Positions 2,596 to 57,102 of a DNA stretch of 64,000 bases are shown here, piece by piece. Every line of letters starts with the position of its first letter. The stretch's first letter is position 1. The stretch is from Deltaproteobacteria bacterium. GTDB lineage: Bacteria; Desulfobacterota; Desulfomonilia; UBA1062. A model generated the notes under the pieces. That model was not told the DNA's origin, searched no databases, and worked only from the letters and a program-made list of their open reading frames with translations. A program made the position numbers and the translations under genes. The DNA lies in NCBI GenBank assembly GCA_022703355.1, contig JAKLDU010000001.1, positions 4,173 through 68,172 of the forward strand, written 5' to 3'.

Positions 2596-2784
2596 GGAAA
2601 TGTTTTTCGGATTTTTCGCGGCAGGTCTTGAAGGGTGTCCGGTCCGAAAAGACCGTGATCACCCTTTCGATCTCCGCGGGTCTGTTCCCGGTAAGGAAGC
2701 CCTCCCGGTACACGCTTCAGAACGCCTCCACCAGGGAGTTTGCTGAAGTTCAGGCCGCGACCGAAGGGGAGAGCGGGCGCAGAC

Positions 2785-24907: not shown

Positions 24908-24917
24908 GGGAGACCCC

Positions 24918-35654: not shown

Positions 35655-36344
35655 ATGAAAAGGATCCTGGCGATTTCTTTTGTGTTCCTGTTTTTTGCCG
35701 CGGGCGCGCACGCCCAGTCCGGTGTCGGACAGGGCCCCAGATTCTACGGCGACTTCAAGCCCGTGGTGGGCGGCTGGTCCGAGTACCAGATGACGGCCAG
35801 GGGCGAACCCCCCACGAAGATGAAGGTCGCGGTGGTGGGCAAGGAAGGCCCGAACTACTGGTACGAGACGGTCATGCAGGGGGAGATGCGCATGGTCTCG
35901 AAGATGCTCGTCTCCGGCAACCCCGGCGACAGGTCGAACCTCAAGAGGATGATCATGAAGGCCGGCAGCGAGAAGGCCATGGAGATGGACGTGGCCGCGA
36001 TGATGGCCAGGCAGCCCGCCGGCGGGCCCAAGGGGGCCTCGCCGAAGGCGGTTGACAAGGGCATGGAGACGGTCAGGGTCCCCGCGGGCACCTTCCAGGC
36101 CCGTCACCTGCAGTACCGGGAGGGTTCCGACGTGGTCGACGCGTGGGTGAGCGGGACGGTCACGCCCTACGGGATCGTGAAGTCAAAGTCCAGGGACATG
36201 GAGATGGTGCTCACGGGCCAGGGCACCGGCGCCACGACCCTCATCACCGAGACGCCCAGGAAATTCTCCATGCCGCCCATGCCCCAGGGCATGCCCAAGG
36301 GGATGCCCCACGGCGCCATGCCCGGCATGGGCGGGGGAAACTAG
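35655..36344 (+). CDS. Secreted hypothetical protein with Met/Pro-rich C-terminal tail (possible Cu(I)-binding; DUF4412-like)
   Basis: 229 aa. RBS GAGGAGGAGAAAACATG. Signal peptide MKRILAISFVFLFFAAGAHA. C-terminus MPPMPQGMPKGMPHGAMPGMGGGN (MxxM repeats). Confidence 0.5.
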   Translation: MKRILAISFVFLFFAAGAHAQSGVGQGPRFYGDFKPVVGGWSEYQMTARGEPPTKMKVAVVGKEGPNYWYETVMQGEMRMVSKMLVSGNPGDRSNLKRMIMKAGSEKAMEMDVAAMMARQPAGGPKGASPKAVDKGMETVRVPAGTFQARHLQYREGSDVVDAWVSGTVTPYGIVKSKSRDMEMVLTGQGTGATTLITETPRKFSMPPMPQGMPKGMPHGAMPGMGGGN

Positions 36345-36496: not shown

Positions 36497-37519
36497 TCAG
36501 CCGATCGTGTGGGCGTAGGGGTCAGGGCGGTCCATGGCCTGGCGGATCTCATCGGGCGTGAGCCACTGGTCGTACTTCCGGTAGTCCGCAAAGACCTCGC
36601 AGGAGGTGCAGGGGATGTCCTCCCGCCCGGGGACGGTGCCCAGGTGCATCATCCGTGCGTACCGCATGCGCTCGTTGTTCACCTCCTGCGCAAACCTGCC
36701 GCCCAGGGCATCCTGCGCGAACACACCGTGCACGTTGTGGCTGCACCCGAGCAGCCTCCCGTCCCAGCTCACCTGCGGCGACCGCCAGAGCTGCAGGCAG
36801 ACGTGCCGCATGTAGATCATGCCGGTCTTGCGGAAAAAGGAGCTCGTGTCGGAGTAGCCGATGAGCTTCGTGAGCAGGGTGTGGTCCCGCAGGGGGAGGT
36901 GCTCGTCGAACACGTTGATCTTGAAATAGATCTCCATGCCCAGGGCCTTGGACATCACGATGATCCGGCCGATCTCGTGCTCGTTGTGCCCGAAGGGGAT
37001 GAACTGGAGGATCAGGCGGGGCAGGACGCTTCCATGGCGCTTCTTGTGCCCGTTGATCGCGCGCACGTTCCCGAGCACCTTCCGCAGGTCGCCGCCCACG
37101 CGGTACTTTTCGTAGGTTTCCTGGGTGGCCCCGTCGATGGAGACCTTCAGGATGGAGACGCCGTACTTCACGAGGGCCTCCAGGGCTTCGGGGGAGGCGT
37201 CGTTCAAGTTCGAGCCCTGGTCGATCTGTATCTTCACCCCCTTGTCGTGGGCGTACCGGAGCATGGCGGGCAGGTCGCGGTTCAAAAAGATTTCGCCCGA
37301 GCTCCCGATCTCGAGGGTCCGCACCCCGGGGTTGGCGTCGATGAACTCCCTGAAGGAGCTCAGCGGCAGGACGCCCCTGCCGATGAAGGCCTGCCCGTCC
37401 CGGTGCGCGACGGGGCAGAGCACGCACCTGAGCTGGCAGAGGCTGGAGATGTCGAGCCGCACCTCCGAGGGCTTGACCTCGAGGCAGTCGTCGCTCAGCC
37501 TTTCGCCGGTCCTCATCAT
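36497..37519 (-). CDS. Radical SAM enzyme (CxxxCxxC) with Cys-containing C-terminal auxiliary region; putative lasso-peptide tailoring enzyme
   Basis: 340 aa from ATGATG (revcomp 37514-37519), the C-terminal part of ORF 36497..37978. Motif CQLRCVLCP. Additional Cys at 241, 259, 304 and 307 (CTSCEVF) is compatible with a SPASM/twitch-like site. Start overlaps the stop of the upstream glycosyltransferase (translational coupling). Confidence 0.75.
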   Translation of the reverse strand: MMRTGERLSDDCLEVKPSEVRLDISSLCQLRCVLCPVAHRDGQAFIGRGVLPLSSFREFIDANPGVRTLEIGSSGEIFLNRDLPAMLRYAHDKGVKIQIDQGSNLNDASPEALEALVKYGVSILKVSIDGATQETYEKYRVGGDLRKVLGNVRAINGHKKRHGSVLPRLILQFIPFGHNEHEIGRIIVMSKALGMEIYFKINVFDEHLPLRDHTLLTKLIGYSDTSSFFRKTGMIYMRHVCLQLWRSPQVSWDGRLLGCSHNVHGVFAQDALGGRFAQEVNNERMRYARMMHLGTVPGREDIPCTSCEVFADYRKYDQWLTPDEIRQAMDRPDPYAHTIG

Positions 37520-38688
37520 GCCGCAGCCTCCAGGCATTCCCGCACGATCCCGCTCACCGTGCGGGACGAGTCGTAGCCTGCGTACCGCGCGGCAAACGCC
37601 GCGGCGTTTCTCCCGAGCTCGGCGGAGCCGGCCGCGAGGTCGAACTTCTCCCGCACTCCACCCGGTTTGCCCAAAAAGCTCGCGAACTGGCACAGCCCCT
37701 GCGCGTTGAGCCGGTGCGCCTGGATGGTCTGCTCGAGCTGCTCCGGGCACACGAGCATGCGCACGCCCATGAGGAGTACCTGCGCCGTGGTGCTGTAGCC
37801 CCCGTGCGTGACCGCCACGCCGCACTGGGCCGTCGCCCGGAAGATGTCCACGGGCTTCGGGCTGATGCGGAGGGTTGCGGACTGAGCCTTCTGCCGGTCG
37901 GACTCGGGCAGGTCGCGCACATACCCCACGGCCGGCAGCCCGCGGGTGCGGAGATGGTCGAGGAGGTCCGGAAGGCACCTGTTGGCGCTGCTCAGGTAAA
38001 AGAACACCCGGGGCCCGTCACCCTCGGGCCAGTCGCACCCGGCATCGGACCCGCTCTCGAAGATCGGCCCCCGGAAGGTCTCGCCTTCCCGGTTCCCGTA
38101 GTGGTCGGTTTCGGGGAAGATCGTGAGAAAGCGCCGTGCCCCGCAGAAGATGCGGGCCACGGAATCGACCGACGGCACGGCGCCCCGCACCCTCTCCACG
38201 AGCATGTCCTCCGTGCGGGCGAGCTCCTTTTCCGGCAGGGACAGCCAGGGGTGCAGGCCCGGCATGGGCGAGAGGTCCGGGGGCAGGGTGAACCCCGTGC
38301 CGAGGGCGCCCCGGGGCAGGTCCAGGGACAGGGCCGCAAGCAGGGCGGTGGGGGAGTAGTCCGTCAGGACGAAGTGGGGCTTGTGCTCGCGGAGGCGTCC
38401 GGTCCACCAGGCGAACTGCTCCCGGAACCGCTCCCCGTCCCAATAGCCGTTGCCCCAGATGCACTGGGCATAGTTCAGCGAAAAGCCGGTCTTGAGGATC
38501 TTCCACGCGGGGGATTGCTCGATGGCGACGTCGAGCCCCGTAAAAGCCTGATGGGCTCTCCGGGCGTCGCAGCACAGCACGGAGACGCTGCTGCCGCGCC
38601 TCAGGAACTCCCGTGCGATCGCCCTGAATGGCAGGACATGCCCCCAACCCCCGCCCATCTCGCAGGCGATGACGATGCGGCATGCCAC
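37516..38688 (-). CDS. GT1-family (GT-B, MGT/UDP-glycosyltransferase-like) glycosyltransferase; putative lasso-peptide tailoring enzyme
   Basis: 390 aa with GTG start (VACRIVIACEMGGGWGHVLPF...). C-terminal sugar-donor motif ...AVTHGGYSTTAQVLLMGVRMLVCPEQLEQ, typical of GT1 enzymes. Sits 33 nt downstream of the precursor gene. Confidence 0.75.
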   Translation of the reverse strand: MACRIVIACEMGGGWGHVLPFRAIAREFLRRGSSVSVLCCDARRAHQAFTGLDVAIEQSPAWKILKTGFSLNYAQCIWGNGYWDGERFREQFAWWTGRLREHKPHFVLTDYSPTALLAALSLDLPRGALGTGFTLPPDLSPMPGLHPWLSLPEKELARTEDMLVERVRGAVPSVDSVARIFCGARRFLTIFPETDHYGNREGETFRGPIFESGSDAGCDWPEGDGPRVFFYLSSANRCLPDLLDHLRTRGLPAVGYVRDLPESDRQKAQSATLRISPKPVDIFRATAQCGVAVTHGGYSTTAQVLLMGVRMLVCPEQLEQTIQAHRLNAQGLCQFASFLGKPGGVREKFDLAAGSAELGRNAAAFAARYAGYDSSRTVSGIVRECLEAAA

Positions 38689-38720
38689 GATTTACGAACT
38701 GATGAGAAAGCTTGTGCTGC

Positions 38721-38858
38721 TCAGCTGTATACGCTGTTGTCCGAGCCGGTTCCCGTGTACCCGCTCAAGGTCGTCGCATTGATGTCGAGCTCCCTGATGC
38801 TGGGCTTCTCCCACTCGGGTAGATCTGTGCGCACGGTGGTGTCTTTTCTGTCTTCCAT
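38721..38858 (-). CDS. Lasso peptide precursor (A); MEDRKDTTVRTDLPEWEKPSIRELDINATTL / SGYTGTGSDNSVYS
   Basis: 45 aa ORF at the C-terminus of ORF-track frame 38721..40118. Strong RBS GGAGGAGG, then 5 nt, then ATG. Leader has an aromatic-xxP-x-hydrophobic motif (WEKPSI) and Thr at -2 if the core starts at Ser. Core Ser1...Asp9 (or Gly1...Asp8) allows the macrolactam. C-terminal Ser matches HPr-kinase-type phosphorylation targets. Confidence 0.75.
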   Translation of the reverse strand: MEDRKDTTVRTDLPEWEKPSIRELDINATTLSGYTGTGSDNSVYS

Positions 38859-38959
38859 GGTCGCCTCCTCCTGCATGTGCATGGGATGCTTATAGATACG
38901 GGAAGTCGCATCCGTTTGTCCAGAAAAAAACGAGCCTTTTCGTGATGCAGCCTGCCCCG

Positions 38960-39241
38960 TCACCCTGCGGAGACGAGGTCGAATCCCGCCATCTCCCGGA
39001 TAAAGTCCGTCACGTCCCTGAGGCACTGGCCGCCCTCGACCGAGAAGGAGCCTTCGAGCTCCCTGCAGATCTCCGCTATGGAGCGGGGCTCCTCCAGCAG
39101 GGCGAAGATCCGCGCCCCGGTCTCGTTCAGATGATAGTACTTGCCGTTCTGGATGTTCATTGCCACCAGCTCGTTGTCGATCATTCCGGTGAAGATGTCC
39201 TCGTTCTTCCTGACGATGCTGTCGGGACTCAGTGATGCCAT
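38960..39241 (-). CDS. Lasso peptide biosynthesis B1 protein (PqqD-like RiPP recognition element)
   Basis: 93 aa. ...NELVAMNIQNGKYYHLNETGARIFALLEEPRSIAEICRELEGSFSVEGGQCLRDVTDFIREMAGFDLV, classic PqqD/RRE. Confidence 0.88.
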   Translation of the reverse strand: MASLSPDSIVRKNEDIFTGMIDNELVAMNIQNGKYYHLNETGARIFALLEEPRSIAEICRELEGSFSVEGGQCLRDVTDFIREMAGFDLVSAG

Positions 39242-39280
39242 CGGGTCTTCCTCCTTTGTGGGCGCCTCTGTGGGCCCCGG

Positions 39281-40261
39281 TTATCCCCGCTCTTTTTCCC
39301 GGATGGTGCGGCAGAGGTCCTCCGGCCGCGGGAGGCTGGCCGGAAGCCTGATCTCCTGCACCATGACCTGTGCCGAGAGCTCCTGCAGGTTTTGAAACAG
39401 GCTGAGCCTGCTGATGGTGTCTCCCATGAAGCGGATGCAGAAGACGTGCTCCAGGAGGGCGTGGAACTTTGCCGCCCCCGCAAGCGGCACGAACGAGAGC
39501 TCCGGGTCGTTTGTGCGGCGCAGGATGAAGATCTTCCTCAGCGGGGCCGGCTCGCTCCTGAAGGTGGAACGGGCGAGCACGGCGAGCTTGTTCACGTCGG
39601 GCTTCAAGCGGCCTGCCACGGTGTGCTCGAAGGCCACTTCCCCGAGCGCGTCCTCCCAGAGCCTGATCTCGGGGATGCCCGGCGCCACCGACGGCTGGCC
39701 GCCTTCGAAGCGTATGAGCGCGATGTTGTCGTCGAGATAGGCGCATCCGGCATTGAGGAAGGCCGCGGCCAGGGTGGACTTGCCCGTGCCGGAGGCGGCG
39801 CAGAAGACGAAGCACGCGTCCCCGTCGCACAGGGCGCTGCCGTGCAGGGGCAGCATGCCCCGCTGGTGGAAGATGCCCGCCAGGGACCAGCCGAGCAGGA
39901 TCTGCCTGATGATGCCGGGGTTGCCCCCCGGCAGCTGCTGGACGGTGATGGCATTGCCCCCGGAGACGCGGATCGTGGCGCTCTGGGAGCCCCGGAGCAG
40001 GAGCTCGCCCGGCGAGGACTCGATCTGCACCGAGCTCGGCGGCACGTAGTCCCGGCCGAAGATCACCCCCTGGCCGATGCGGACGTCCGGCTCCCCCGCG
40101 AAGGTGGACTCGGGCCACTGGGGGAAGGAGATCTCCGAGGCAAACGAGAGGCCGTAGGCCCGGTAGGCGTACGGGCCGCCGGAGAAGAGCCCGCCCTCTT
40201 CGGGAGGCGCCTTCACCGCCCCTTCAAGGGCGTTCTCAGGAGTGGTGCAGCTCGATGCCAT
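39281..40261 (-). CDS. HPr kinase/phosphorylase C-terminal-domain-like protein (lasso-peptide Ser kinase homolog, PadeK/PsmK-type)
   Basis: 326 aa. P-loop GSALCDGDACFVFCAASGTGKSTLAAAF. Family N-terminal pattern (PYAYRAYGLSFASEISFP). The annotated ATG overlaps the cupin gene by 26 nt, so the true start may be a downstream non-ATG codon. Confidence 0.8.
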   Translation of the reverse strand: MASSCTTPENALEGAVKAPPEEGGLFSGGPYAYRAYGLSFASEISFPQWPESTFAGEPDVRIGQGVIFGRDYVPPSSVQIESSPGELLLRGSQSATIRVSGGNAITVQQLPGGNPGIIRQILLGWSLAGIFHQRGMLPLHGSALCDGDACFVFCAASGTGKSTLAAAFLNAGCAYLDDNIALIRFEGGQPSVAPGIPEIRLWEDALGEVAFEHTVAGRLKPDVNKLAVLARSTFRSEPAPLRKIFILRRTNDPELSFVPLAGAAKFHALLEHVFCIRFMGDTISRLSLFQNLQELSAQVMVQEIRLPASLPRPEDLCRTIREKERG

Positions 40262-40949
40262 AGAACCTCGCCGGGAAAGCGTCGCGGTTGATCATGCCGT
40301 GGGGCACGCGGGAGCCCATGAACGCGAAGGCCGGCGCGTTCACCGTCTTGCCGAGGATCTCCAGGGAGCCTTCCACCAGGGCGAGAAGAAGCTCGTGGTC
40401 GTGGCGGTGGAGCGGGATCACCCCCCCGGTCGAAAGCACGTGGTAGCGCACGTGCAGGCGGGAGAGGTAGCGCGAGGGCCCGGCGTAGACCTCGACGGCG
40501 CCGGGGTGCTCGCCGCCTTCCGCGCCGCGGAGGTGGTTGAACCGCAGGCCTTGCTTTCCGCCGGGGGGCTCGGCGTCCTTGCGCCACCTGGCGTGCAGGT
40601 AGTGCACCGGTGTGTCGCCGGTGTTCCGGAAGGTGTGCGGCACCCGGGAGTCGGTGAAGGACAGGGAGCCCGCCGTCAGGTCGAACGGCAGTTCGCCTGC
40701 GGACGAATCGCCGCTCGTGACGTACTGGAGGTTGTCCGACAGGGCGAGGTGAACCTCCTCGTGATCGTGGCGGTGAACCTCGTGGGGGGTCACCCGAGCG
40801 CTGAGCACCCCGTCGTGGATGCAGAGCTCGTCCAGGCACCTGGTCGAGCCGAGATACCACACCCGCCTGAACCACCCGGTGGCCGGGTCCTCCTCGAGCT
40901 GCCGGGGCAGCTCCTGAATCAGGAAATCCAATCCTTCCGTTTTTTTCAT
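40236..40949 (-). CDS. Bicupin-fold protein with two HxHDHE metal-binding-like motifs; putative tailoring enzyme
   Basis: 237 aa from ATG at 40949 (MKKTEGLDFLIQELP...), the C-terminal part of ORF 40236..42692. Motifs HRHDHEEVHLAL and PLHRHDHELLLALVEG. ATGA overlap with the cyclase stop. Confidence 0.6.
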   Translation of the reverse strand: MKKTEGLDFLIQELPRQLEEDPATGWFRRVWYLGSTRCLDELCIHDGVLSARVTPHEVHRHDHEEVHLALSDNLQYVTSGDSSAGELPFDLTAGSLSFTDSRVPHTFRNTGDTPVHYLHARWRKDAEPPGGKQGLRFNHLRGAEGGEHPGAVEVYAGPSRYLSRLHVRYHVLSTGGVIPLHRHDHELLLALVEGSLEILGKTVNAPAFAFMGSRVPHGMINRDAFPARFYGIELHHS

Positions 40950-42886
40950 CCCGTCCTCCCGGCCTGCTCGATGAAGCAGCCGCACATGATCCCGCGCAGC
41001 AGGAGCGTCGAGGCCTGCCACGCGGTGTAGGGGGTGATTCGGTCCTGCAGGGCGCGCCAGGCGCCTCGCATGCGGGGCAGGTCCAGGTACGCCGCTGTCT
41101 GCCCGTTCCGTTCGAGGCGCGCCAGGACATTCTCCATCTCCCCCGGGAAGCACAGGAGCCGCAGGGCGACGTCCACCCCCTGCCTGCCGCGGACCGTGTT
41201 CCACTGCACCTCCGGGGGGACGAGCCCCTCCACGGCCCGCCGGATCACCATGCGCTCGCCGCCGCCGAAGGTGTCCTGGCAGCCGGGCAGGCCCAGGCAG
41301 TAGCGCAGCAGGCGGGCGTCCGCGGTGGGGTCCCGCACGTCCATGCCGAAGGCCGCCCCGGTGACGTGCCAGATGGGCCCGGCCATAACGCCGTTGCGCA
41401 TGAGGGTGAGCCGGCGCTGTTCGCGGGGGTGGGGCAGGGCGCTGAAGGTCGGGTCGTGGCGCGCCTCCTCCATGGCCTGCTCCAGGCCCATGCGAGAAGC
41501 GAAGTCGGGGCGGATGGGGGCGTATTCGCTCCAGGGCCGGGGGGCCCCCCTCAGCCTCGACTGGAGGCGCTTGAAGGAGGGGCGCAGCCAGGGCCTGATC
41601 AGCTGGCCCGCCAGCGCTCCCACCCAGGAGGAGCCGGTGCGCTCCTTCCACCGGGCGAGGGCGTCGAGGCCCTCGCCCCACCTGCCCTCGGCGAAGAGCC
41701 AGAAGATGCGGCCCTGCCCGCCGCTCCACGAGACGCCCCCGTTGCCCAGCTGGCCGGTGAGCATGACGCCGAGGCCCTGCTCCCGGGCGGCGTCGTGGAG
41801 CGCCATGATCCAGTATTCGTTGGCGGCCGCGTGCTGGGGGGCGCGGTTGAGAGCCACGGCCCGTTCGATCCCCTGCAGGGGAGACACCCCGGAGGCGTCG
41901 ACGGCGGTGTGGTCGATGTTGCCGTACCTGCGGGCGACGGCGCTCGCCAGGGGCCACTCGTTTGCCAGGGTGCCCGGCGCCAGGCGGCTTGCCTCGTGCA
42001 GGGGCACGGAGGTGAAGGCCTTCAGGGTGCGCCCTTCGCCCTCCAGCGCCTGCGCCGCCAGGGCGGTCACCGAGGAGGAGTCCAGCCCGGCGCTCAGGCT
42101 CGCCCCGACGGGCCTGCGCGACCTCAGGCGCACGGTGACCGCCTCGCGGTAGCGCTCGAGGAAGCCGGCCACGCAGTCGTCGTCCCGCCGGCCTTCTTCG
42201 GTGGGTATGTCCCCCATGTCCCAGTACCGCCTCGCCTCCAGCCCCCGGGGCCCCGCTTTCAGGCAGGAAGCGGGCAGCAGCCGGAAGACGCCCTCCCAGC
42301 AGGTGTCCTCCGGCTTCCCCAGGGGAAAGATGGCCAGGTAGGAAGCGAGGTGGCGCTCGCTCACCCTGCACTCGACCCCATCCAGGGAAAACAGGGCTTC
42401 CGGGTCGGAGGAAAAGGCGAAAAGCGGCGGGCGGAGGCAGTAAAAGAGCCCCGTGTTCCCCAGGTGGTCCCTGGCCAGGAAGAGCGTGCGCGTCAGGGGG
42501 TCCCAGGCGGCGTACGACCAGTCGCCGAAGAGGCGGCCCGGGGCGTCCTCCCCCCAGGCGAGCCAGGCGCGCTTCGCCAGCTCGCCGTCGGGCACGGTCC
42601 CGCGCTCGCCCCCGGTGATATCGAAGGCGTCGCACAGCTCGTCGCGGTTGTCGAGGCGGGCGGCCGCGGTGAAAAGCGCGCCTGTGCCGCATGGCCGCGA
42701 CGGCATGGATTCATGGACCGATTCGGGGGTGATGGCGAGGCGGGCAAAGCCCACGACCCCGGCTTGACCGCTCGCCGTAAAGACGCCGTCGGGCCCCCAG
42801 CGCTCCATGGCCCGGCTCATGAGCTCTCCCGCCCCGGGGTGCAGGGGTTGCCCATCAAGATGCACACAACCGAAGATGGCGCTCAT
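40946..42886 (-). CDS. Lasso peptide cyclase (C), asparagine-synthetase-like (macrolactam synthetase)
   Basis: Start at M38 of ORF 40946..42997 (MSAIFGCVHLDG...). Residue 2 is Ser, not the Cys nucleophile of class-II amidotransferases, as in McjC-type cyclases. AsnB-type PP-loop SAGLDSSSV and C-terminal synthetase domain. Confidence 0.88.
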   Translation of the reverse strand: MSAIFGCVHLDGQPLHPGAGELMSRAMERWGPDGVFTASGQAGVVGFARLAITPESVHESMPSRPCGTGALFTAAARLDNRDELCDAFDITGGERGTVPDGELAKRAWLAWGEDAPGRLFGDWSYAAWDPLTRTLFLARDHLGNTGLFYCLRPPLFAFSSDPEALFSLDGVECRVSERHLASYLAIFPLGKPEDTCWEGVFRLLPASCLKAGPRGLEARRYWDMGDIPTEEGRRDDDCVAGFLERYREAVTVRLRSRRPVGASLSAGLDSSSVTALAAQALEGEGRTLKAFTSVPLHEASRLAPGTLANEWPLASAVARRYGNIDHTAVDASGVSPLQGIERAVALNRAPQHAAANEYWIMALHDAAREQGLGVMLTGQLGNGGVSWSGGQGRIFWLFAEGRWGEGLDALARWKERTGSSWVGALAGQLIRPWLRPSFKRLQSRLRGAPRPWSEYAPIRPDFASRMGLEQAMEEARHDPTFSALPHPREQRRLTLMRNGVMAGPIWHVTGAAFGMDVRDPTADARLLRYCLGLPGCQDTFGGGERMVIRRAVEGLVPPEVQWNTVRGRQGVDVALRLLCFPGEMENVLARLERNGQTAAYLDLPRMRGAWRALQDRITPYTAWQASTLLLRGIMCGCFIEQAGRTG

Positions 42887-43025
42887 GGACCGGCTTGTCT
42901 CCTTGGGCATGGGGCTTGACGACCGCAGATCAAGGTAACTGTAAGGAAAAGTCCTGGAGGTGTCAACACGGAAAGGCCGGCACTTTCCCGTTGACAAAGG
43001 CCGGGGGGGCCATTAGCTTCGGGGC
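42887..43025. promoter_or_regulatory. Divergent intergenic region between lasso cyclase (C) and B2 genes (putative bidirectional promoter)
   Basis: 139 bp between the divergent C and B2 start codons. Contains CTTGACGACC / TTGACA-like hexamers (gttgacaaagg) and GGCCGGGGGGGCC. Confidence 0.3.
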
Positions 43026-43463
43026 ATGCGGCGCCTGGGAAAGTTTTTCAAACTGAGCGGCGGCGAGAAGCGGCGCTTCGTGGAGGCGGCCGTCTGGCTC
43101 ACGGTGTTCAGGGTCGCCGTGTCCTGCGTGCCCTTCCGGGTTATCGCCGGTCTCCTGGGCAGGGAGAGGGGGGAGACGGCCGTTGCTTTCCCGGACCCCG
43201 CGGGCAGGGGGGAAGTCCTGGCCGTGGCCCGGGCGCTTAAGGTCATGGGCCGCTCTCTCCCCTGGGAAAGCACCTGCCTGGTCAAGGCCGCGGCAGGCAA
43301 GCGCATGCTGTCGTGCCGCTCCATCCCCGCCACCCTCTACCTCGGGGTCGCCCGGGACGACGTGAACGCGGTCGCCGCCCACGCCTGGCTCCGCTCCGGG
43401 GACGTCATCCTCACCGGGGCCGAGGAGCGCGATCGCTACACCGTGATCTGCACCTTCGCCTGA
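43026..43463 (+). CDS. Lasso peptide biosynthesis B2 protein (transglutaminase-like Cys protease, leader peptidase)
   Basis: 145 aa. Catalytic-triad context ...WESTCLVKAAAGKRML...LYLGV...AHAWL...D. Same size and shape as split-B B2 proteins. Encoded on the strand opposite to the rest of the cluster. Confidence 0.85.
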   Translation: MRRLGKFFKLSGGEKRRFVEAAVWLTVFRVAVSCVPFRVIAGLLGRERGETAVAFPDPAGRGEVLAVARALKVMGRSLPWESTCLVKAAAGKRMLSCRSIPATLYLGVARDDVNAVAAHAWLRSGDVILTGAEERDRYTVICTFA

Positions 43464-43639
43464 ATTCCGCTTGACTGTCACCTCCCGCTCCGCCATCGGT
43501 TGAGGGCGCTCCAGGTCTCGGACCGGGTGAGTCGGCGCCAGGCGGCCACGAGCAGTGTTCGAGAGGCGGCACTCCCCATCCGGCGCTTCCAGGGAAGCGC
43601 GTTCGCACCAGGCGTCCTCGAGTTGCCGGTGAAGAGGCG

Positions 43640-45448
43640 TCACCCCCCTGTCTGGCGTTTCCAGGATTGGGAGTAGCGGCCCTGCGATGCCACCAGCTCC
43701 TCGTGGGACCCGGACTCCACGATGCGCCCCGCGTCCATCACGTGGATGACGTCCGCCTGGAGGGCCGTGGTGAAGCGGTGGGTGATGACGAGGGCCGTTC
43801 TCCCGGCCGCGAGGGAGCGGAAGCGGGCCATCCAGTCCCCCTCGGCCCAGGAGTCCATGGCGCTGGTGGGCTCGTCCATGATGATGAGCGGGGCCTGCCT
43901 GAGAAAGGCCCGGGCCAGGGCCAGGCGCTGCCATTCGCCCACGCTCAGCTCCGCGCCGCCGAACCACTTGCCCAGGAGGGTTTCGTAGCCCTTGTCGAGG
44001 CGCCCGATGAGGGCGTCCGCCCCGGCCGACCGGGCGGCCTCGCGGACGTCTTCGGCATCGGGGGCGTCCGCCGGGGAGCTGAAGGCGATGTTGTCGAAGA
44101 CCGTCTCGTGGTAGCGCACCGGCTCCTGGAAGAGGATGGTGATGGAGGAGCGCACCCCGGCCAGCGCTGCGTCCCGCAGGTCCACGCCGTCCAGGAGGAT
44201 GGAGCCGGCGTCGGGGTCGTAGCAGCGGCACAGGAGCTTGATGAGGGTGCTCTTGCCCGCCCCGTTCTCCCCCACGATGGCCGTGATCCGCCCCGGCGGG
44301 ATGGTCAGGCTGAAATCCTCGAGCGCCGGGCGGGGGCTGCCGGCATAGGAGAACGTGACGCCGCGGATCTCCACCGCACCGGCCGGGGCGTGCGGGGAAA
44401 GCGGCTCCGGCGGGTCGGCGATGAGCGGCCTGACGTCCAGGTACTCGAAGAGGTTCTCCAGGAACATCATGTTGCGGTAGATCTCCCCCGCCTGGGCCAG
44501 GAGGTCCCGCAGCATCCTCTGCCCCTGGGTGAAGGCCAGGTAGAAGAGGGTGAGGTCGCCCAGCGTCATGAGCCCCTGCGAGGCCCTGCCCGCCATCCAG
44601 GCGAGCACCCCGGCCAGCGCGGCGAGGCCAAAGGCACCGGCGGCGAGCTGCCCCCCCGCCTCCGCCTTGAGCAGGGAGAACCGCTCGGTGCGCAGGCGCT
44701 CCCGGATCCCCTGGAAGGCGGAGCGGAACCTGTCGCCCAGGGCGAAGATGCGCAGCTCGGCCGCGGCGTTGCGGTCCGTGATCAGCCAGTCGTAGTAGCG
44801 GCTTCTCCGCTCGGCCGCCGTGTTGTTGAGGCGCCAGGCGTGGAAGCGCAGGGTGTTGCGCAGGATCACCCACAGGGCGGGCAGGGTGCTCCCCACGAGC
44901 ACCAGGGGCACCCAGAGCCCGAACCGCAGGAGCACGACGCCCATGGCGGCCAGGGTGATCCCGTTCTGGAGAAAGGCGCCGAAGTTCTCCAGCAGGGCCG
45001 CGGGCCTGCTCAGGGCATCGACCCGGGCCCGGTGGAGGCGGTCGTAGTAGTCCGGGGAATCGTAGAAGGCCAGATCCAGGGCGAGCGCCTGCCGGTGGAT
45101 GAGATTGTGGATGTGGTCCTGCACCCGCTCGCTCTGGAGGGCCCGCACGAGGCCGGCGGAGATGCGCAGGACCTCGCCCAAGAGCATGACCAGGGCGAGG
45201 GCGCCGATGAGCAGCAGGAGGGGGCGCAGGCCTTCCCAGGACCGGCCGCCGCTTGCCGCCGCCGCCAGGCCGTCCACCACGGCCTTCGAGAGGTAGACCA
45301 CCGCCGCGGGGAGGAGCCCCTGGGCCAGGAGCAGCACGAGCCAGAGCGCCACCAGGCCCTTTGCCGCGGAGGAGATGAGGGCGAAGGCCCGGGGCAGGTA
45401 GGGGATCTGGTGCAGGCCGGACTTCAGCTTGTCTTCGAGCGCGCTCAT
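43640..45448 (-). CDS. ABC transporter, fused permease/ATPase (lasso peptide exporter, McjD-like)
   Basis: Start at M50 of ORF 43640..45595. 6-TM exporter domain. Walker A GENGAGKST. ABC signature LSVGEWQRLALARAF. Walker B IIMDEPTSAMD. Confidence 0.9.
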   Translation of the reverse strand: MSALEDKLKSGLHQIPYLPRAFALISSAAKGLVALWLVLLLAQGLLPAAVVYLSKAVVDGLAAAASGGRSWEGLRPLLLLIGALALVMLLGEVLRISAGLVRALQSERVQDHIHNLIHRQALALDLAFYDSPDYYDRLHRARVDALSRPAALLENFGAFLQNGITLAAMGVVLLRFGLWVPLVLVGSTLPALWVILRNTLRFHAWRLNNTAAERRSRYYDWLITDRNAAAELRIFALGDRFRSAFQGIRERLRTERFSLLKAEAGGQLAAGAFGLAALAGVLAWMAGRASQGLMTLGDLTLFYLAFTQGQRMLRDLLAQAGEIYRNMMFLENLFEYLDVRPLIADPPEPLSPHAPAGAVEIRGVTFSYAGSPRPALEDFSLTIPPGRITAIVGENGAGKSTLIKLLCRCYDPDAGSILLDGVDLRDAALAGVRSSITILFQEPVRYHETVFDNIAFSSPADAPDAEDVREAARSAGADALIGRLDKGYETLLGKWFGGAELSVGEWQRLALARAFLRQAPLIIMDEPTSAMDSWAEGDWMARFRSLAAGRTALVITHRFTTALQADVIHVMDAGRIVESGSHEELVASQGRYSQSWKRQTGG

Positions 45449-46674
45449 CGGGCCGTCTTCAGGATGCGCCCGGCCTTTTTCCTGACGACCAGGAGGGGCC
45501 GGATGAGGTAGCGGAGGAAGGAGAGACCCTCCGGGAGGGGAAGATTCACCGTTTCCGCGTACTGGGGCCGGAAATGGAGTGCCAGGTAGCGCCATTTCTC
45601 GGGCGTCCCCCTGCAGGCCGCCCAGCCGATCCTCTTCGTGAGCCAGTACCTGCGGCCCCAGGCGTGATCCGTCCCCTCCCAGGGGAGGACGGCCATCCGC
45701 AGGGCCAGCTCGACGAACTTCGCTTCCCGGGGGTCCTTGAGGAGCTCCAGGGCCTCGGCGGGCACCGGAACGTCGAAGAGCAGGTGGGCCAGGAGCACGG
45801 AGCGGAGCAGGCGCGGTTTTTCGCCGTAGCGCTCGGCAACCGCGATCAGGCTTTCGAACCCGCCGGGCCCCGGGCCGCCCACCAGGGCCGCGATGTCGAA
45901 GAGGCGGATGAGCCGCTCCCAGGCGTGCCGCTCCCCGTGGATGGCCAGGTAGACGCCGTGGAGGGGCAGGGGCAGGGTGGGGACCTCCGTGCCGTGCAGC
46001 TTCACCGCGGCCCGCTGCTGCCAGAGGTCCTCGAAGGGGAACCGGGGGCCTTCCCCGTCGTGGCAGAGATGGAAATGGAGCTCCACGTGGGCGCGGTTCC
46101 GGGGGTTGACGAAGTGGGTGTGGATGGTGCCCCCGGGGTCGAGCGCCGCCTTGCCGGGGCCTTCCCCGGGCTGGTAGACGAACCCGTCCTTGAGGAGCAG
46201 GCTTTCCGCCCTTTCGTGGTCGTCCCGGGAAACGAGCAGGTCCAGGTCAGAGCAGTAGCGCATGCCCGGGTCGCCGTAGAGCTGCACCGAAAGGGCCGGC
46301 CCCTTGAACGCCATGACGCGGGTCCCGCTGTGCGCGAAGAGCCTGCTCAGGCGGGCGAGCTCCGCCGTCATCTTCAGGAGGTGCATGCCGCTCTCCGTGC
46401 CCCGCCCCCGGGCCGCTTCCGGGAGGCCCCCGGCGTTTCCCCGGCCCTCAAGGGCGCGCAGCGCAGGGATGAGCAGGCGGTTCTCGTGGAGGAGGTTTAC
46501 GAACCGGCCCCAGTCGGGGCCATGGAGGGCCGCAAGGCGGTCGAGGGCGCCCGGTGGCCCGGCCGGGCTGTTTTTCAGCAGGGCCGCGGCGCAGGAGAAC
46601 ATGAGCCTGAACTCGAGGGCGGCCTCGGGGTCCAACCCGGACCTGGCGAGCTGCCGGTCAACCAGGGGATGCAC
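45445..46674 (-). CDS. Nucleotidyltransferase-family protein (PF14907-like, lasso-cluster-associated NTase, PsmN-type)
   Basis: 409 aa. ...VMAFKGPALSVQLYGDPGMRYCSDLDLLVSRDD...HVELHFHL..., the NTP_transf_5 signature. ATGA overlap with the ABC exporter start. First gene of the minus-strand operon. Confidence 0.75.
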   Translation of the reverse strand: MHPLVDRQLARSGLDPEAALEFRLMFSCAAALLKNSPAGPPGALDRLAALHGPDWGRFVNLLHENRLLIPALRALEGRGNAGGLPEAARGRGTESGMHLLKMTAELARLSRLFAHSGTRVMAFKGPALSVQLYGDPGMRYCSDLDLLVSRDDHERAESLLLKDGFVYQPGEGPGKAALDPGGTIHTHFVNPRNRAHVELHFHLCHDGEGPRFPFEDLWQQRAAVKLHGTEVPTLPLPLHGVYLAIHGERHAWERLIRLFDIAALVGGPGPGGFESLIAVAERYGEKPRLLRSVLLAHLLFDVPVPAEALELLKDPREAKFVELALRMAVLPWEGTDHAWGRRYWLTKRIGWAACRGTPEKWRYLALHFRPQYAETVNLPLPEGLSFLRYLIRPLLVVRKKAGRILKTAR

Positions 46675-46883
46675 TTATCTGACCCCCCTGGAACAGCCGC
46701 GGCCCTGCGCCCGGGATGGTAAAGCATGCCGGATACGTCATAGCGCCCCTTTTCTCTGGAACAGGATCCTGATTCCCACCGGAACCGACGGGGGTGAGTG
46801 TACCAAGCTTTTTCCCCCGAGACCACAGCAAAACCTCAGCGGCGAGCAGGGGCCCACGCCAAAGTGGCAAGGGCACGGGCCCT

Positions 46884-46990
46884 CGCCTGCATGCGGCAGC
46901 AGAAACCGCGGGTGAGCGCAAGCCGCCACCGCCGCCAGGTCTTGCACCCCTCTTGCCTGCATGCCGCAGCAGAAACCCCGGGGGAGCGCA
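46884..46990 (+). repeat. Two ~37-bp imperfect direct repeats (CTGCATGCGGCAGCAGAAACCSCGGGKGAGCGCA) in the feoB-3'end / lasso-operon upstream region
   Basis: Copy 1 at 46884-46920 and copy 2 at 46954-46990 (70-bp period), ~210-320 bp upstream of the nucleotidyltransferase start. Confidence 0.6.
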
Positions 46991-47015
46991 GGGGCACAGT
47001 CCCGCCCGGGGCGCG

Positions 47016-48959
47016 TCAGAGGACGTGGGCGATGGTCCCTGCGACGACGAGCGCCACCGCCGTGTTCAGGGCGACGGAGGCGGCGGCCACCTTCCACCCC
47101 CCTTCCTTCCACAGGGTGGAGATGGTGGCGATGCAGGGGATGTAGAGCACGGTGAAGACCACGAGCACCAGGAGCTGCACCGGGGAAAGGACGGAGGCGA
47201 CGTTCGCCGTGCCCAGCGCCGATTCGAGCATGATGAGCGTGAGCTCCTTCCTGAAGATGCCCAGGAACAGGGTGATCCCCAGGTTTTCCGGGAGGTCGAG
47301 GACGAAGGCGGTGACCGGGGAGAGCGCCGCGTTCACGTACGCGTCGACGCCCGCGTGCGCCATGACCGCCAGCACGATGCTCGAGATTGCGATCACCGGC
47401 CAGGCGAAGGCCAGGAACTCGTAGGTCATGGCCCAGACCTTCCTGAGCACGATGCCCGCGTAGGGTCTCCTTAAAGGCGGCACGTCCATGATGATCCCCG
47501 GCGACGTCTCGACGTTGAACCGCGACAGGAGGAACGACATCGCCAGGGCCACGGCGATGTTCCCCAGGTAGATGAGCGTGGCATACCCCGCCCCCAGGTA
47601 CTTGCCCGCCAGGGCCATGATGATCACGGTGCGCGCCGAGCACGAGATGAAGGGGACCACCAGGAGGGTGATGATCCGGTCGCGCTCGTACTCGAGGTTC
47701 CGGGCGGCCATGATGGCAGGCACGTTGCAGCCGTAGCCCAGGATGAGGGGCACCACGGACTTCCCGTGCAGCCCGAACCGGTGCAGCAGGCCGTCCATCA
47801 TGAAGGCGATGCGCGGCAGCAGCCCGGTGTCCTCCAAAAGCGACATGAGGGTGAGGAGCGGCACGAGAAAAGGCAGGACGATGCCCAGGCCCGCGGTGAC
47901 CCCGTCCCAGAGGCCCGCGGCGAGGATCAGCACGTTTCCGCTCAGCAATCCCGGAAGCTGCCGGCCGACGAGGTCGAGCGGCCCCTCGAGCAGGCCCGAG
48001 AGGAGGTCGCCCAGCCAGAACGAGGTGGAGAACATGAGGAAGATCAGGGCCGCAAACGCGATCAGCCCGCCTGCGGGGTTGATGATGAAGCTGTCGACGG
48101 CCTCCCCGAAGGAGAGCTTCGCCCTCGACTTCACCACGGCCACGTCCTCGAAGAGGTCCATGACCATGGCGTGGCGGTGCGACGCGAAGACCCCGGTCTC
48201 GGGCCAGGCGTGGACCTCCGCCAGGAAGCGCCGGTTTTCCCGGACGAACTGGAGGAACGCGGGGTCGGCCTCCTGGGCCAGGGCCTCGAACTCCGGGTCC
48301 ATCTCCAGGAGCCTGATGATGACGAAGCGCTCGTTCACCCGGGCGAGCTCCCCCAGGGATTGCGGGTAGCGGCTCGCGATGCGGGCGATGCACTCCTCCA
48401 CGTCCTTGTCGTACACGGGCTTCCGGTAGCGGTACGCCTCCCGGGAGACCTTGAACGCGGCCCTGAAGAGCTCGTGCACGCCGCTGCCCTGCGCCGCCAC
48501 GAGGGGGCAGGCCTCCACGCCGGTGAGGGAAGCGAGCTTCGCCGCGTCGATGGCGATCCCCTTTTTCTGGGCCTCGTCGAACATGTTCAGGGCGATGACC
48601 ATGGGGACGTCCATCTCCATGAGCTGGATGGTGAGCTCCAGCGAGCGGGCCAGCGTGGAGGAGTCGAGCACGTTGATGATGACGTCCACGCTCCCGGAGA
48701 GGAGGTAGTCCCGGGCCACCTTCTCGGCGATGTCGTGGGCCGAGATGGAGTAGGTCCCGGGCAGGTCGATGAGCTTCACGGTGCGGCCCTCGAAAAAGAC
48801 CCTCGTCTCGGTGTAGGCCACGGTGGTGCCGGAGAAGTTGCCGGTGTTCACCTTGAACCCGGCCACGGCGTTGAACAGGGTGGATTTCCCGCAGTTGGGC
48901 TGCCCGGCCAGGGCTATGACCAGCTCGTCACCGGGGCTCTTCGTTGCGGATCTCGACAT
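47016..48959 (-). CDS. feoB: Ferrous iron transport protein B (FeoB)
   Basis: 647 aa. G-domain (IALAGQPNCGKSTLFN, DLPGTYS). GDI-like region. Polytopic permease domain. Canonical FeoB. Annotated start overlaps the feoA 3' end by 32 nt. Confidence 0.95.
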   Translation of the reverse strand: MSRSATKSPGDELVIALAGQPNCGKSTLFNAVAGFKVNTGNFSGTTVAYTETRVFFEGRTVKLIDLPGTYSISAHDIAEKVARDYLLSGSVDVIINVLDSSTLARSLELTIQLMEMDVPMVIALNMFDEAQKKGIAIDAAKLASLTGVEACPLVAAQGSGVHELFRAAFKVSREAYRYRKPVYDKDVEECIARIASRYPQSLGELARVNERFVIIRLLEMDPEFEALAQEADPAFLQFVRENRRFLAEVHAWPETGVFASHRHAMVMDLFEDVAVVKSRAKLSFGEAVDSFIINPAGGLIAFAALIFLMFSTSFWLGDLLSGLLEGPLDLVGRQLPGLLSGNVLILAAGLWDGVTAGLGIVLPFLVPLLTLMSLLEDTGLLPRIAFMMDGLLHRFGLHGKSVVPLILGYGCNVPAIMAARNLEYERDRIITLLVVPFISCSARTVIIMALAGKYLGAGYATLIYLGNIAVALAMSFLLSRFNVETSPGIIMDVPPLRRPYAGIVLRKVWAMTYEFLAFAWPVIAISSIVLAVMAHAGVDAYVNAALSPVTAFVLDLPENLGITLFLGIFRKELTLIMLESALGTANVASVLSPVQLLVLVVFTVLYIPCIATISTLWKEGGWKVAAASVALNTAVALVVAGTIAHVL

Positions 48960-53944: not shown

Positions 53945-56900
53945 TCAGGGGCGTTCTTTCCTGATCCGGGCCCCGAGCTTTTCCTTCCAGTCGTCGAAGA
54001 GGTCGTAGGCGGCGGGCACCACCGCTAAAGTGAGGAAGAGCGAGGTGATGAGGCCGCCGATAACCGTGACGCCCATGGGCGAACGGATGTCCGAGCCCTC
54101 GCCCACGCCCAGGGCCACGGGCATCATGCCCAGGACCATGGCGAAGGTGGTCATGAGGATGGGCCGCAGCCGCACGGGGCCCGCCTGCATGATGGCGTCC
54201 CGCCGGGACATGCCCCGCGCCCTGAGCGTGTTGGTGTAGTCCACGAGCAGGATGGAGTTCTTCTTCACGAGCCCCATGAGCAGGATGAAGCCGATGAAGC
54301 TCACGATGGAGATGGACTTGCCCGTCATGAGGAGCGCGCCGAAGGCGCCGATGAAGGAGAGCGGCATGGCCAGGAGCACGGTGACCGGGTGCAAAAAGCT
54401 TTCGAACTGGGAGGCGAGCACCATGTAGGCGAGCAGAATGCCCAGCATGATGGCGAACAGGAGGTACTTGAACGACCTGCCCATTTCCTCGGCCTCGCCC
54501 ACGTAGCTGGTAGTGTAGCCCGGGGGCAGGGTCCTGGCCGCGATGGCGTCGAGCTCGGTCATGGCCGTGCCCAGGGGCTTGCCCTCGAGGTTGGCGAAGA
54601 GCCACAGCGAGCGCTGGCGGTCCCTGCGGGTGATCAGGCTGGGGCCGCCCCCCTCCACGATGTTCACCACGTTGCCCAGTTCCACGAGCCTGCCGTCGCT
54701 GGCCCGCACATACAGCCTGCCGATGTCTTCGGGGCTTGCCCGGTTCTCCGGGTTGAGCCTCACGCGCACGTCGTAGCGCCTGCCCCGGGCGTCGTCCTTG
54801 AACTTGGTGATGTCCACCTCGCCGGAGATGAGCAGGTTGACGGCCTCGGCGATGGTCGCGGTGCTCACGCCCAGGTCGGAGGCCTTGTTCCGGTCGATGA
54901 AGACGCTGAGCTCGGGCTTGCCCACCTCCAGGGAGGTGTCCACGTCGACGATGCCCGGCAGCTTCGCGAACTCCGAGGCGATGGCCTTGGTGTACCTCCG
55001 CTGCTCCTCGGGCGTGCCCCCGCTGATGACGTACTGCACCGGGAGGTTCCGGATGCCGCCGCCGAGCATGGAGACCTCCTCGATGGTGGTCTTCAGGCCG
55101 GGGATGGCGCCGAGCTTCTTCCTGAGCTCCGCCATGATCTCCTGCTGGGTTTTTTCCCTCTCCGCCCGCGGCAGGAGGCGCGTGAAGATCGTGCCCTTGT
55201 TGATCTGGCCCGTCCCGCCCTGGCCCATGCCCTGGGCGAAGAAGGCGCCTTTGACCTCCGGCCTGGCCCGCACGATGCCCTCGGCCTGGGAAAACAGGTC
55301 GCCCGCCTTCTCCAGGGAGTAGTCGACAGGGGACTCCATCCTCACCACGAACTGGCTCTGGTCCTCGGACGGCTTGAACTCCTTGCCGATGAACTTCACC
55401 ATGTACATGCTCAGGGCGAAGAGAACCAGCGCGCCCAAGAGCACGGCCCCCCGGTGGTCAAGGCTGAACCTCAGGACGGGCCGGTAGCCCGCCACGATTT
55501 TTTCGTGGACGCCTTCGAGCATGCTTCCCAGCCTGGCCCAGAACGCCGACTTCTTTTCCCGCCTCAGGTGCTCCTCGTGGGTCAGGAGGAAGATGGAGGA
55601 AAGCATGGGGGTCAGCGTGAGCGAGACGAGGAGGGAGACGAGGACGGAGAAGACGACGGTGAGGGCGAACTGCAGGAAGAACCGCCCGATGATGCCCTTC
55701 ATGAAGGCCACGGGCAGGAAGATGACCACGATGGCCAGCGTGGTGGCCAGGACCGCAAGGCCGATCTCGGAGGTGGCGAAGGCCGCGGCCTCCCGGGGGG
55801 GCATGCCTTCTTCGATGTGGCGGTAGATGTTCTCGATGACGATGATGGCGTCGTCGATGAGGATGCCCACGGAGAGGGTGAGCGCGAGCATGGTGAGGTT
55901 GTTGAAGGTGAAGTCGAAGAGGCGCATGACGGCGAAGGTGGAGATGATGGAGACGGGCAGGGCAACGGCGGCGATGAGGGTGGAGCGGATGTTCCTGAGG
56001 AAGACGAAGACCGCGATGACCGCCAGGATGGAGCCCAGGATGAGGTGCTCGCGCACCTGGTTCATGGAGTTGACGATGAAGGTGGACTGGTCGAAGGCGA
56101 TGTTCAGCCTGATGCCCGGCGGCAGGGTCTTCTCGATGCGCCCGATCTCCGCCTTGACGTTCTCCACCACCTGCACGGTGTTGGTTCCCGTCTGCTTCTG
56201 GATGCCGATGCCGATGGCCGGGACGCCGTTGTACTTGGCGTAGGACCTGCGCTCCTCCATCCCGTCCTCGGCGCGCCCGATGTCCCTGATGCGCACGGGG
56301 GCGCCCTGGGAGTAGGCGACGATGAGGTCGTCGAACTCGGAGACGCTCTTCATCGAGCCCTTGACCTTGATGGAAAACTCCTTGGTCTTCGACTCGATGC
56401 GGCCGCCGGGGAGCTCCACGTTTTCCCTGCCCAGCGCCAGCGCGATGTCGCTCGGGGCGATGCCGTAGGCCCTGAGCTTGTCGCCGTCGAGCCAGATCCT
56501 GACCTGCCTCTTCTGGAGGCCGCCCAGCAGGAGGGCGCCCACGCCCTCGGTCCTCTGGAGCTGCTCCTTGAGCACCTCGTCCACGTAGGTGGAAAGCTCC
56601 ACCTGGGTTTTCTGCCCGGTGACCGCGATCCACATGACCGGGCTCGAATCGGTGTTGACCTTCATGATCACGGGCTCGCTGATGTCGTCCGGGAGCTTGG
56701 AGCGCACCGCGGCGATCTGCTCGCGCACGTCCTGCACCGCGATGTCGATGTCGCGTTCGAGCTGGAACTCAACGATGATGCTCGAGGCCCCTTCGAGGCT
56801 CGTGGAGGTGATGGTCTTCACCCCGTTGATGGTGTTCACCGCCTCTTCGATCTTGTCCGTGACGTCGATGTCCATGATCTCGGGGCTGGCCCCCTTGAGG

Positions 56901-57049: not shown

Positions 57050-57102
57050 ACACCCTCACCCCGCTCCCCTGCCCGCGAGTCTTCCGGACTGGCGGCTCTG
57101 CG

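Follow-up and report, generated by a model that had tools for sequence, protein, structure and literature searches.

The locus described here raises the question of whether a glycosyltransferase (GT), a radical S-adenosylmethionine (rSAM) enzyme and a bicupin encoded among lasso-peptide genes act in the lasso pathway itself, and what kind of peptide such a pathway would make. It lies in a 64,000-nucleotide stretch of contig JAKLDU010000001.1 from a Deltaproteobacteria bacterium, which was analyzed at its full length and is referred to below as the window. A sequence-only reading of this DNA had assigned positions 36497-47015 to a complete lasso-peptide cluster with a large tailoring set. We found that the cluster genes span 36497..46674 and that the last 340 bp of the earlier range (46675..47015) were non-coding. 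In our judgment, the region is likely a functional, complete cluster for a paeninodin-like (kinase-type) lasso peptide, belonging to a distinct clade of anaerobes from several phyla in which a block of bicupin, kinase, precursor-recognition element, precursor, family 1 glycosyltransferase (GT1) and rSAM genes is conserved.

Lasso machinery and precursor peptide

The GC content of the window is approximately 0.67, so coding frames were chosen by third-position GC, and start codons were mapped. All ten genes were present at or beside the positions given by the sequence-only reading, with a third-position GC of 0.80-0.91 backing each frame, and their domain assignments were confirmed. Independent JGI and ENA calls on metagenome contigs carrying an identical kinase gave the same set of open reading frames (ORFs) with the same lengths, the sole difference being that the precursor was called as 53 amino acids (aa).

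The claim that the lasso cluster is complete was borne out, as A, B1, B2 and C were all present by hidden Markov model (HMM) matches and precursor features. In particular, the macrolactam cyclase C, an Asn-synthetase homologue (40946..42886, minus strand, 646 aa), matched the lasso cyclase family NF033535 best, with an E-value of 3.3e-89 and 300 bits against a strict cut-off of 525. Asn_synthase and GATase_7 also matched, and a SAGLDSS PP-loop was present. The AsnB model was far weaker (TIGR01536, 1.7e-39, 136 bits against a cut-off of 267), and the N-terminus reads MSAIFGC, so that Ser2 replaces Cys2, as had been noted earlier. A genuine glutamine-dependent AsnB was rejected, since the protein has no Cys2 nucleophile and scored below the TIGR01536 cut-off. 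The cyclase had 463 homologues at E<1e-30, including one in Desulfatiglans anilini.

The two parts of the split leader-processing system, which had been predicted to be detectable by HMM, were both found. B1 is a discrete PqqD-type RiPP recognition element (RRE; RiPP, peptide made on the ribosome and then modified post-translationally) of 93 aa (38960..39241, minus strand) that matched PF05402 (PqqD) above cut-off at 1.6e-16; its best specific model was NF033536 lasso_PqqD_Bac (1e-17, 64 bits against a cut-off of 80). B2 is a transglutaminase-like Cys protease of 145 aa, the lasso leader peptidase, which is inverted on the plus strand between the exporter and cyclase genes (43026..43463). It matched PF13471 (Transglut_core3) at 1e-23 and NF033537 lasso_biosyn_B2 with 92.7 bits against a cut-off of 33, and Cys84 and His119 were invariant across six orthologues. 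The same inverted placement was seen in two related loci, L009 and L098.

Additionally, the cluster encodes an ATP-binding cassette (ABC) exporter, a fused permease and ATPase of MsbA/McjD-like type (43640..45448, minus strand, 602 aa). It matched ABC_tran (2.4e-31) and ABC_membrane; the nearest NCBIfam models were MsbA-type and below cut-offs, and the protein was 67-79% identical to the products of the ABC genes of L009 and L014. The PF14907 (NTP_transf_5) nucleotidyltransferase (NTase), which had been recognized beforehand, was supported by a match of 3.2e-44 and a G...SDLDLLV motif. This gene (45445..46674, minus strand) encodes 409 aa from a GTG start and 396 aa in alternative gene calls, and homologues were found in the related loci L003, L011 and L014.

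The precursor gene A (38721..38858, minus strand) encodes 45 aa and has an AGGAGG sequence 7 nt upstream. Its leader, MEDRKDTTVRTDLPEWEKPSIRELDINATTL (38766..38858, minus strand), is followed by the 14-aa core SGYTGTGSDNSVYS (38724..38765, minus strand), for which a Ser1-Asp9 ring is predicted. The sequence runs WEKP...ATT-L|SGYTGTGSD, with Thr at position -2 and Asp at core position 9, and the predicted tail consists of the five residues NSVYS. The mass computed for the lactam core is an [M+H]+ of 1376.56, to which a phosphate would add 79.97 and a hexose 162.05. The intergenic gaps of the window were searched for a second precursor, and nothing resembling a lasso precursor was found.

In the cluster of cultured Desulfatiglans anilini DSM 4660, the core is AGTTGDGSDNQSYS. 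Comparison of 21 orthologous precursors revealed a WxxPx(V/I) motif in each and cores of 13-15 aa. Thr was found at position -2, at a fixed distance from WxxP, in 20 of the 21, and L001 has Ser at -2 by the same spacing. Asp, which sets the predicted ring size, lies at core position 8 (4/21), 9 (15/21) or 10 (2/21), five residues from the end in all but one precursor, and every precursor ends in Tyr-Ser. Asp9, Tyr13 and Ser14 (window numbering) were the only invariant core positions of the clade. The locus L015 (11063-12901) departs from this pattern: its RRE, precursor and GT seem split or frameshifted, and the precursor frame runs beyond the expected Tyr-Ser stop, which reflects either cluster decay or an assembly error.

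The window leader is nearly superimposable on the paeninodin-like leaders of classical kinase clusters, in which the core likewise has Asp9 and ends in Ser. One classical precursor, MKKEWQKPELEVLDINMTM|AGPGHKIPDAVQPDPDDPVKYS, has a similar leader and Asp9 with tails of 12-19 residues in this group, and Paenibacillus precursors resemble the classical ones. Popov et al. described WxxP as near-invariant in paeninodin-like lasso leaders and YxxP as the mark of a non-lasso family, the linear polyphosphorylated peptides (LPP; PMC13381572). From the matching leader, Asp9, the WxxP motif and the five-residue tail, the peptide is read at the sequence level as a lasso precursor of paeninodin type whose tail is exceptionally short.

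Tailoring enzymes and their conservation in anaerobes

The gene between those of the bicupin and B1 (39281..40261, minus strand, 326 aa) encodes a P-loop protein of HprK/PEPCK fold, a putative precursor kinase. Its earlier description as HPr-kinase-like held for fold, motifs and homology to Paenibacillus lasso-cluster kinases, but PF07475 was not reached in Pfam. The protein keeps His140, an SGxGKST P-loop and DDN, and is 28% identical (E 1e-25) to a lasso-cluster kinase of Paenibacillus nasutitermitis, where the gene order is sulfotransferase-C-A-K-NTase-A-K-PqqD-B2-ABC (K, kinase). For the kinase, the rSAM enzyme and the bicupin, profile searches of the PDB gave nothing closer than superfamily-level matches.

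The GT-B glycosyltransferase (37516..38688, minus strand, 390 aa) had been called a GT1 enzyme, of which the fold and type stood although Pfam matches remained below threshold. TIGR01426 (MGT) matched at 7.6e-9, and the family profile matched YjiC-type UDP-glycosyltransferases (6e-8) and OleD (5e-4) in the PDB. We assigned the enzyme to GT1 (MGT/EryCIII-like) on the basis of these YjiC/OleD-type matches and of conserved GGGWGHxxP, THGG and PEQxEQ motifs, which hold the GHxxP, THGG and EQ signatures. The family is large, with 728 clusters at E<=1e-30 and relatives at approximately 30-35% identity. Some distant members (P0434, P0458, P0464, P0383 and P0396; approximately 30-34% identity) have sulfotransferase domains and/or extended tetratricopeptide repeat (TPR) arrays fused to the GT, a domain arrangement which hints that the wider family may act on peptide or protein substrates.

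The rSAM enzyme (36497..37519, minus strand, 340 aa) matched PF04055 at 2.2e-10, as expected from the earlier reading, and has its CxxxCxxC motif at C28/C32/C35. In a 10-sequence alignment, four further Cys residues in the C-terminal region were conserved (C241, C259, C304 and C307; Cx12Gx4C ... CxxC), a pattern resembling a twitch or partial SPASM domain; the best match to the SPASM/twitch family models was 1e-13, far under cut-off. Most relatives carry two tandem paralogous rSAM genes that are approximately 50% identical (e.g. L011:7050-9075, L013:12679-14685 and L014:12814-14839), and the single gene in the window, L009, L010 and L001 is orthologous to the first copy. The bicupin (40236..40949, minus strand, 237 aa) matched Cupin_2 in two stretches, and each of its two barrels contains a His/Glu metal motif (HxHxHEE...HxxxN in one and HxxxHE...HxxxN in the other). 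Members of its family turned up in these clusters only, as 18 matches that were all orthologues.

To place this gene set among its relatives, 101 loci were gathered via the kinase and the cyclase, and 97 were scored by tblastn. A single-sequence kinase scan of genome contigs gave no match, and an alignment-based scan was needed. The clade was split at a kinase identity of at least 32.5%, and counts were restricted to loci extending far enough. Among kinase relatives above this value, the GT was present in 18 of 19 loci, the rSAM enzyme in 16 of 17 and the bicupin in 20 of 25. Among distant kinases (25-32% identity), which belong to classical C-K-B1-B2-NTase-ABC clusters, the corresponding counts were 1/30, 1/26 and 0/42. 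The layout of L081, the only GT and rSAM exception, is classical, so that the threshold misplaces this locus; L006, from Riflebacteria JADFXM01, is the mirror case, with a kinase of 31.8% identity and the block nevertheless present.

The order of the (cupin)-K-B1-A-GT-rSAM block was kept across at least five phyla. In L011, all eleven genes are co-directional, while L009 and L098 have the layout of the window, and the cyclase adjoins the block in seven of the nine loci with long flanks. The hosts include Aminicenantes, Smithella, Desulfatiglandaceae, a Geobacter metagenome-assembled genome (MAG), Riflebacteria and the cultured Desulfatiglans anilini. Every identified host is an anaerobe, which favours O2-independent chemistry for the accessory enzymes and argues against an O2-dependent cupin dioxygenase.

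Three related loci show further variation. L003:1-20900 (Desulfatiglandaceae MAG JBGSUA010000128.1) holds a larger version of the cluster with an extra GT4, GT2 and sulfotransferase. In L016:849-11953, approximately 7 kb separate a cyclase 56% identical to that of the window from a PqqD gene and an EryCIII-like GT. This interval holds phosphonate-type genes (phosphoenolpyruvate mutase, thiamine pyrophosphate-dependent decarboxylase and Fe-type alcohol dehydrogenase) and a sulfatase/phosphodiesterase-family gene, and L016 may be a phosphonate-decorated variant. The more distant L017:9608-15067 has a cyclase 47% and a kinase-like protein 25% identical to those of the window, in the order PqqD-C-precursor-GT2-ScmC-like-rSAM. 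Its precursor ends in ..GSFAYS, so a Tyr-Ser end together with a kinase-like protein, a GT and an rSAM enzyme recurs outside the clade.

Compared with the paeninodin and pseudomycoidin clusters of Firmicutes and the proteobacterial SyanK clusters, the locus shares a split B1/B2, the cyclase, an ABC exporter, a putative HprK-like kinase and a PF14907 NTase, which accompanies the kinase in some of those clusters, as well as the WxxPx(L/V/I) leader, Thr at -2, the ring on Asp9 and a core ending in Ser (PMC8498205, PMC6993621). It differs in its tail of 5 residues, where those clusters have 12-19, and in the invariant Tyr-Ser. Its kinase shares only 25-32% identity with the classical kinases and does not reach PF07475, and the hosts are anaerobic Desulfobacterota, Aminicenantes, Riflebacteria and others. 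Moreover, the bicupin, GT1 and rSAM genes conserved here are essentially absent from the classical clusters. In the davasin clusters of Streptomyces, a dedicated glycosyltransferase, IgtG, glycosylates the mature lasso peptide (PMC11912497). A cluster-encoded GT is thus common to both systems, which were compared by description. The davasin clusters were not described with a kinase, NTase, rSAM enzyme or cupin, and IgtG was assayed in microsomes, whereas the window GT looks like a soluble GT1 enzyme (PMC11912497).

Lasso clusters of delta-proteobacteria have been noted earlier (PMC4289311). The literature searched, in which paeninodin, pseudomycoidin, SyanK and the davasins were found, held no description of the combined kinase, NTase, GT1, rSAM and bicupin set or of the Tyr-Ser short-tail clade, in agreement with the sequence-only reading, although a listing in a survey table is possible. 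Searches on SynChlorMet and on Desulfatiglans lasso peptides found nothing. Within this literature, the clade is a previously undescribed, cross-phylum subgroup of kinase-type lasso clusters in anaerobes. No lasso peptide tailored by an rSAM enzyme or a cupin was found there, and pseudomycoidin, whose enzymology is not understood, was the only phospho-glycosylated one. With a conserved five-enzyme tailoring set on a 14-residue core, the clade is a compact system for O2-independent peptide chemistry, and it bears on the minimum tail length of lasso peptides and on post-translational groups as plugs. Experiments are feasible, as the cultured D. anilini DSM 4660 has the same cluster type.

Proposed pathway and competing explanations

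Ser phosphorylation and NTase-dependent hexosylation have been described in kinase-type lasso peptides (PMC9266682, PMC8498205, PMC6993621). On this background, the genes present, their domains, their co-conservation and the features of the precursor suggest a pathway in which every enzymatic step is predicted. B1 would bind the WEKPSI motif of the leader, judging from its homology to solved paeninodin-type RRE-leader complexes, and the HprK-like enzyme would phosphorylate the Ser14 side chain on the linear precursor, by analogy with PadeK, ThcoK, SyanK and PsmK. The PF14907 enzyme may then attach a hexose or a nucleotide to the Ser14 phosphate in the manner of PsmN. B2 would cleave after Thr(-2)-Leu(-1), and C would link the Ser1 amino group to the Asp9 side chain, giving a 9-residue ring with the 5-residue tail NSVYS. 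Further modifications would be added by the GT1, rSAM and bicupin enzymes; as Asp9, Tyr13 and Ser14 are the sole invariant core positions, the likeliest targets are Tyr13 and/or the C-terminal Ser14 glycan. The ABC transporter would export the product. With a tail this short, any threaded topology may be held by bulky groups on Tyr13 and Ser14 that serve as plugs; alternatively, the product may be a branched-cyclic lariat.

Several observations weigh against a functional, complete paeninodin-like lasso cluster. On the product side, the cluster is known here from its genes alone. The kinase, RRE and cyclase all scored under the curated NCBIfam cut-offs of lasso-specific models, and no informative close relative of the rSAM enzyme or the bicupin was found in NCBIfam and PDB profile searches. 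A 10-residue ring is predicted for two precursors, and we know of no lasso peptide with such a ring. The 14-aa core and 5-aa tail fall short of the 15-30 aa of characterized lasso peptides (PMC6993621), which makes threading doubtful. Six loci that carry the block (L006, L010, L013, L018, L019 and L021) show no cyclase or B2 in the available sequence. Finally, L003 has a second HprK-like gene (2658..3617), which gave a weak PF07475 match and lies beside B2, as well as another PqqD gene (14839..15174) and a further candidate precursor (5799..6002, minus strand). The latter ends in ..ETR|LQVSGMGSDLDGWS, which again corresponds to a ring of 9 and a tail of 5 residues, with Trp-Ser at the end. These duplicates suggest that the clade-specific kinase may do something other than Ser phosphorylation.

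The last two observations fit an explanation that we consider improbable, namely that two systems abut and that the cupin-K-B1-A-GT-rSAM block is an autonomous non-lasso RiPP pathway beside, or borrowing, the lasso machinery. The six loci also lack an adjacent NTase or ABC gene, the L003 duplicates lie near B2 and C, and the fixed D-x-x-x-Y-S end recalls the E-x-x-x-Y spacing of PqqA. Such a pathway would resemble either mycofactocin, with its logic of PqqD, rSAM and GT, or LPP, a published non-lasso family with an RRE, an HprK-like protein, an NTase and an exporter (Popov et al. 2026; PMC13381572). However, the window holds a single RRE and a single precursor, so C and B2 would be left without a substrate of their own, and the cyclase-less loci retain the spacing of WxxP as well as Thr(-2) and an Asp at core position 8-10, the features that B2 and C need. 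The adjacency of the cyclase in most long-flank loci likewise speaks against autonomy. LPP pathways, which can occur without a cyclase and co-localize with paeninodin-like lasso clusters, have a SipW-type signal peptidase, a YxxP...FET leader and precursors of 35-200 aa phosphorylated on Ser3 (PMC13381572), whereas the locus here has B2, and its precursor combines a WxxP leader with a 14-aa core and bears the lasso signatures Asp and Thr(-2). Membership in LPP was rejected on the leader motif and because none of the neighbours annotated in the loci had a signal-peptidase Pfam match. A semi-autonomous module nevertheless keeps some plausibility through the cyclase-less loci, the L003 duplicates and the LPP precedent. 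By comparison, it is extremely improbable that the GT, rSAM and cupin genes form an unrelated operon beside a plain kinase-type lasso cluster. Although GTs of this family are not specific to lasso clusters, the cupin and GT genes flank those of the precursor, RRE and kinase, gene order is kept across phyla, the association with the kinase clade is near-perfect with essentially none in the sister clade, and the bicupin family occurs only in these clusters. As the sequence-only reading had anticipated, these genes are conserved together with the kinase-RRE-precursor genes and not apart from them, and the co-conservation data effectively refute an adjacent unrelated operon.

A further explanation, possible although we lean away from it, keeps the lasso cluster and changes the role of its accessory enzymes: the rSAM enzyme and bicupin would make or rework a sugar or nucleotide-sugar of an unusual kind, for attachment to phospho-Ser or Tyr by the GT and/or NTase, so that the GT, rSAM and bicupin would alter no side chain beyond one glycosylation. 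Weak rSAM matches include MoaA and the cytosylglucuronate decarboxylase BlsE, which are twitch enzymes acting on nucleotides or sugars, but the C-terminal Cys pattern also suits peptide SPASM/twitch maturases, and the top NCBIfam matches are maturases for metalloenzymes or peptides. The rSAM enzyme shows no sign of a fused RRE, its 340 aa being divided between an rSAM core and a Cys-rich C-terminal region. Cupins are commonly sugar isomerases or epimerases, and JGI labels orthologues of the bicupin 'mannose-6-phosphate isomerase-like' or 'RmlC-like'; its best structural neighbours, on the other hand, are not sugar enzymes. The anaerobic hosts fit sugar remodelling, as does the proposal by Popov et al. 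that the NTase requires a partner making a rare substrate (PMC13381572), whereas the invariant Tyr points to a peptide target. All of these similarity scores are too weak to discriminate.

In mycofactocin and pyrroloquinoline quinone (PQQ) biosynthesis, a PqqD-type RRE and a SPASM rSAM enzyme act on a Tyr near the C-terminus, and the mycofactocin pathway includes the glycosyltransferase MftF. The block resembles these systems in pairing a PqqD RRE and an auxiliary-cluster rSAM enzyme (and a GT) with a peptide that has a conserved near-C-terminal Tyr. The match to the mycofactocin rSAM model was very weak (E 0.0046), and the locus here also encodes a lasso cyclase, B2 and an exporter; other Mft/Pqq pathway homologues were not seen among the annotated neighbours, at which no dedicated search was aimed. 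We regard it as a rather unlikely, speculative idea that the block gives the invariant D-x-x-x-Tyr-Ser end a C-terminal modification of a new kind, for example a Ser14 phospho-glycan combined with a PqqE- or MftC-like cross-link or rearrangement made at Tyr13 by the rSAM enzyme. If so, the modification could lock, covalently or sterically, the shortest lasso yet seen, and in the cyclase-less genomes a separate non-lasso RiPP class would be possible.

Gene layout and genomic surroundings

The minus-strand genes had been described as a tightly overlapping operon with overlaps at nearly every junction, which was not confirmed. Start/stop overlaps were found at four of the eight junctions (NTase/ABC, 4 bp; C/cupin, 4 bp; cupin/K, 26 bp; GT/rSAM, 4 bp), and the other junctions have gaps of 32-101 bp, except that ABC and C are 753 bp apart with the inverted B2 within. 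Just upstream of the cyclase gene, a sigma-70-like match, TTGACA-17-TACAGT (42938..42966, minus strand), fits the consensus at 10 of 12 positions; a consensus scan gave two such sites in the region against 0.3 expected. Given these overlaps, the spacing and the sigma-70-like match, the array is probably not one operon, and its minus-strand genes probably form two or more transcription units, with B2 in addition. Scans of the window for Rfam families and tRNAs gave no matches.

The flanks are those of an ordinary Gram-negative chromosome, with FeoB, an acyl-AMP ligase, MnmA and resistance-nodulation-division (RND) efflux genes. FeoB (47016..48959) shares the strand of the NTase gene and lies directly upstream of it; the window itself had no call for FeoA or Fur, both of which were called just past FeoB in the near-identical contig L098. 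Fur/Feo genes do not adjoin the cluster in the other annotated loci. Several of the cluster enzymes probably need iron.

On the other side, a gene convergent with the rSAM gene (35655..36344, plus strand) encodes a protein of 229 aa that carries an apparent signal sequence at its N-terminus, is rich in Met, Pro and Gly at its C-terminus (..MPPMPQGMPKGMPHGAMPGMGGGN) and gave no match in Pfam; the protein was also found in L098. Two RND-type efflux pumps are encoded elsewhere in the window (21725-27538 and 53945-58221). Their AcrB-like genes occupy 21725..25228 and 53945..57049, the first with an outer-membrane factor gene nearby and the second with a membrane-fusion protein gene next to it.

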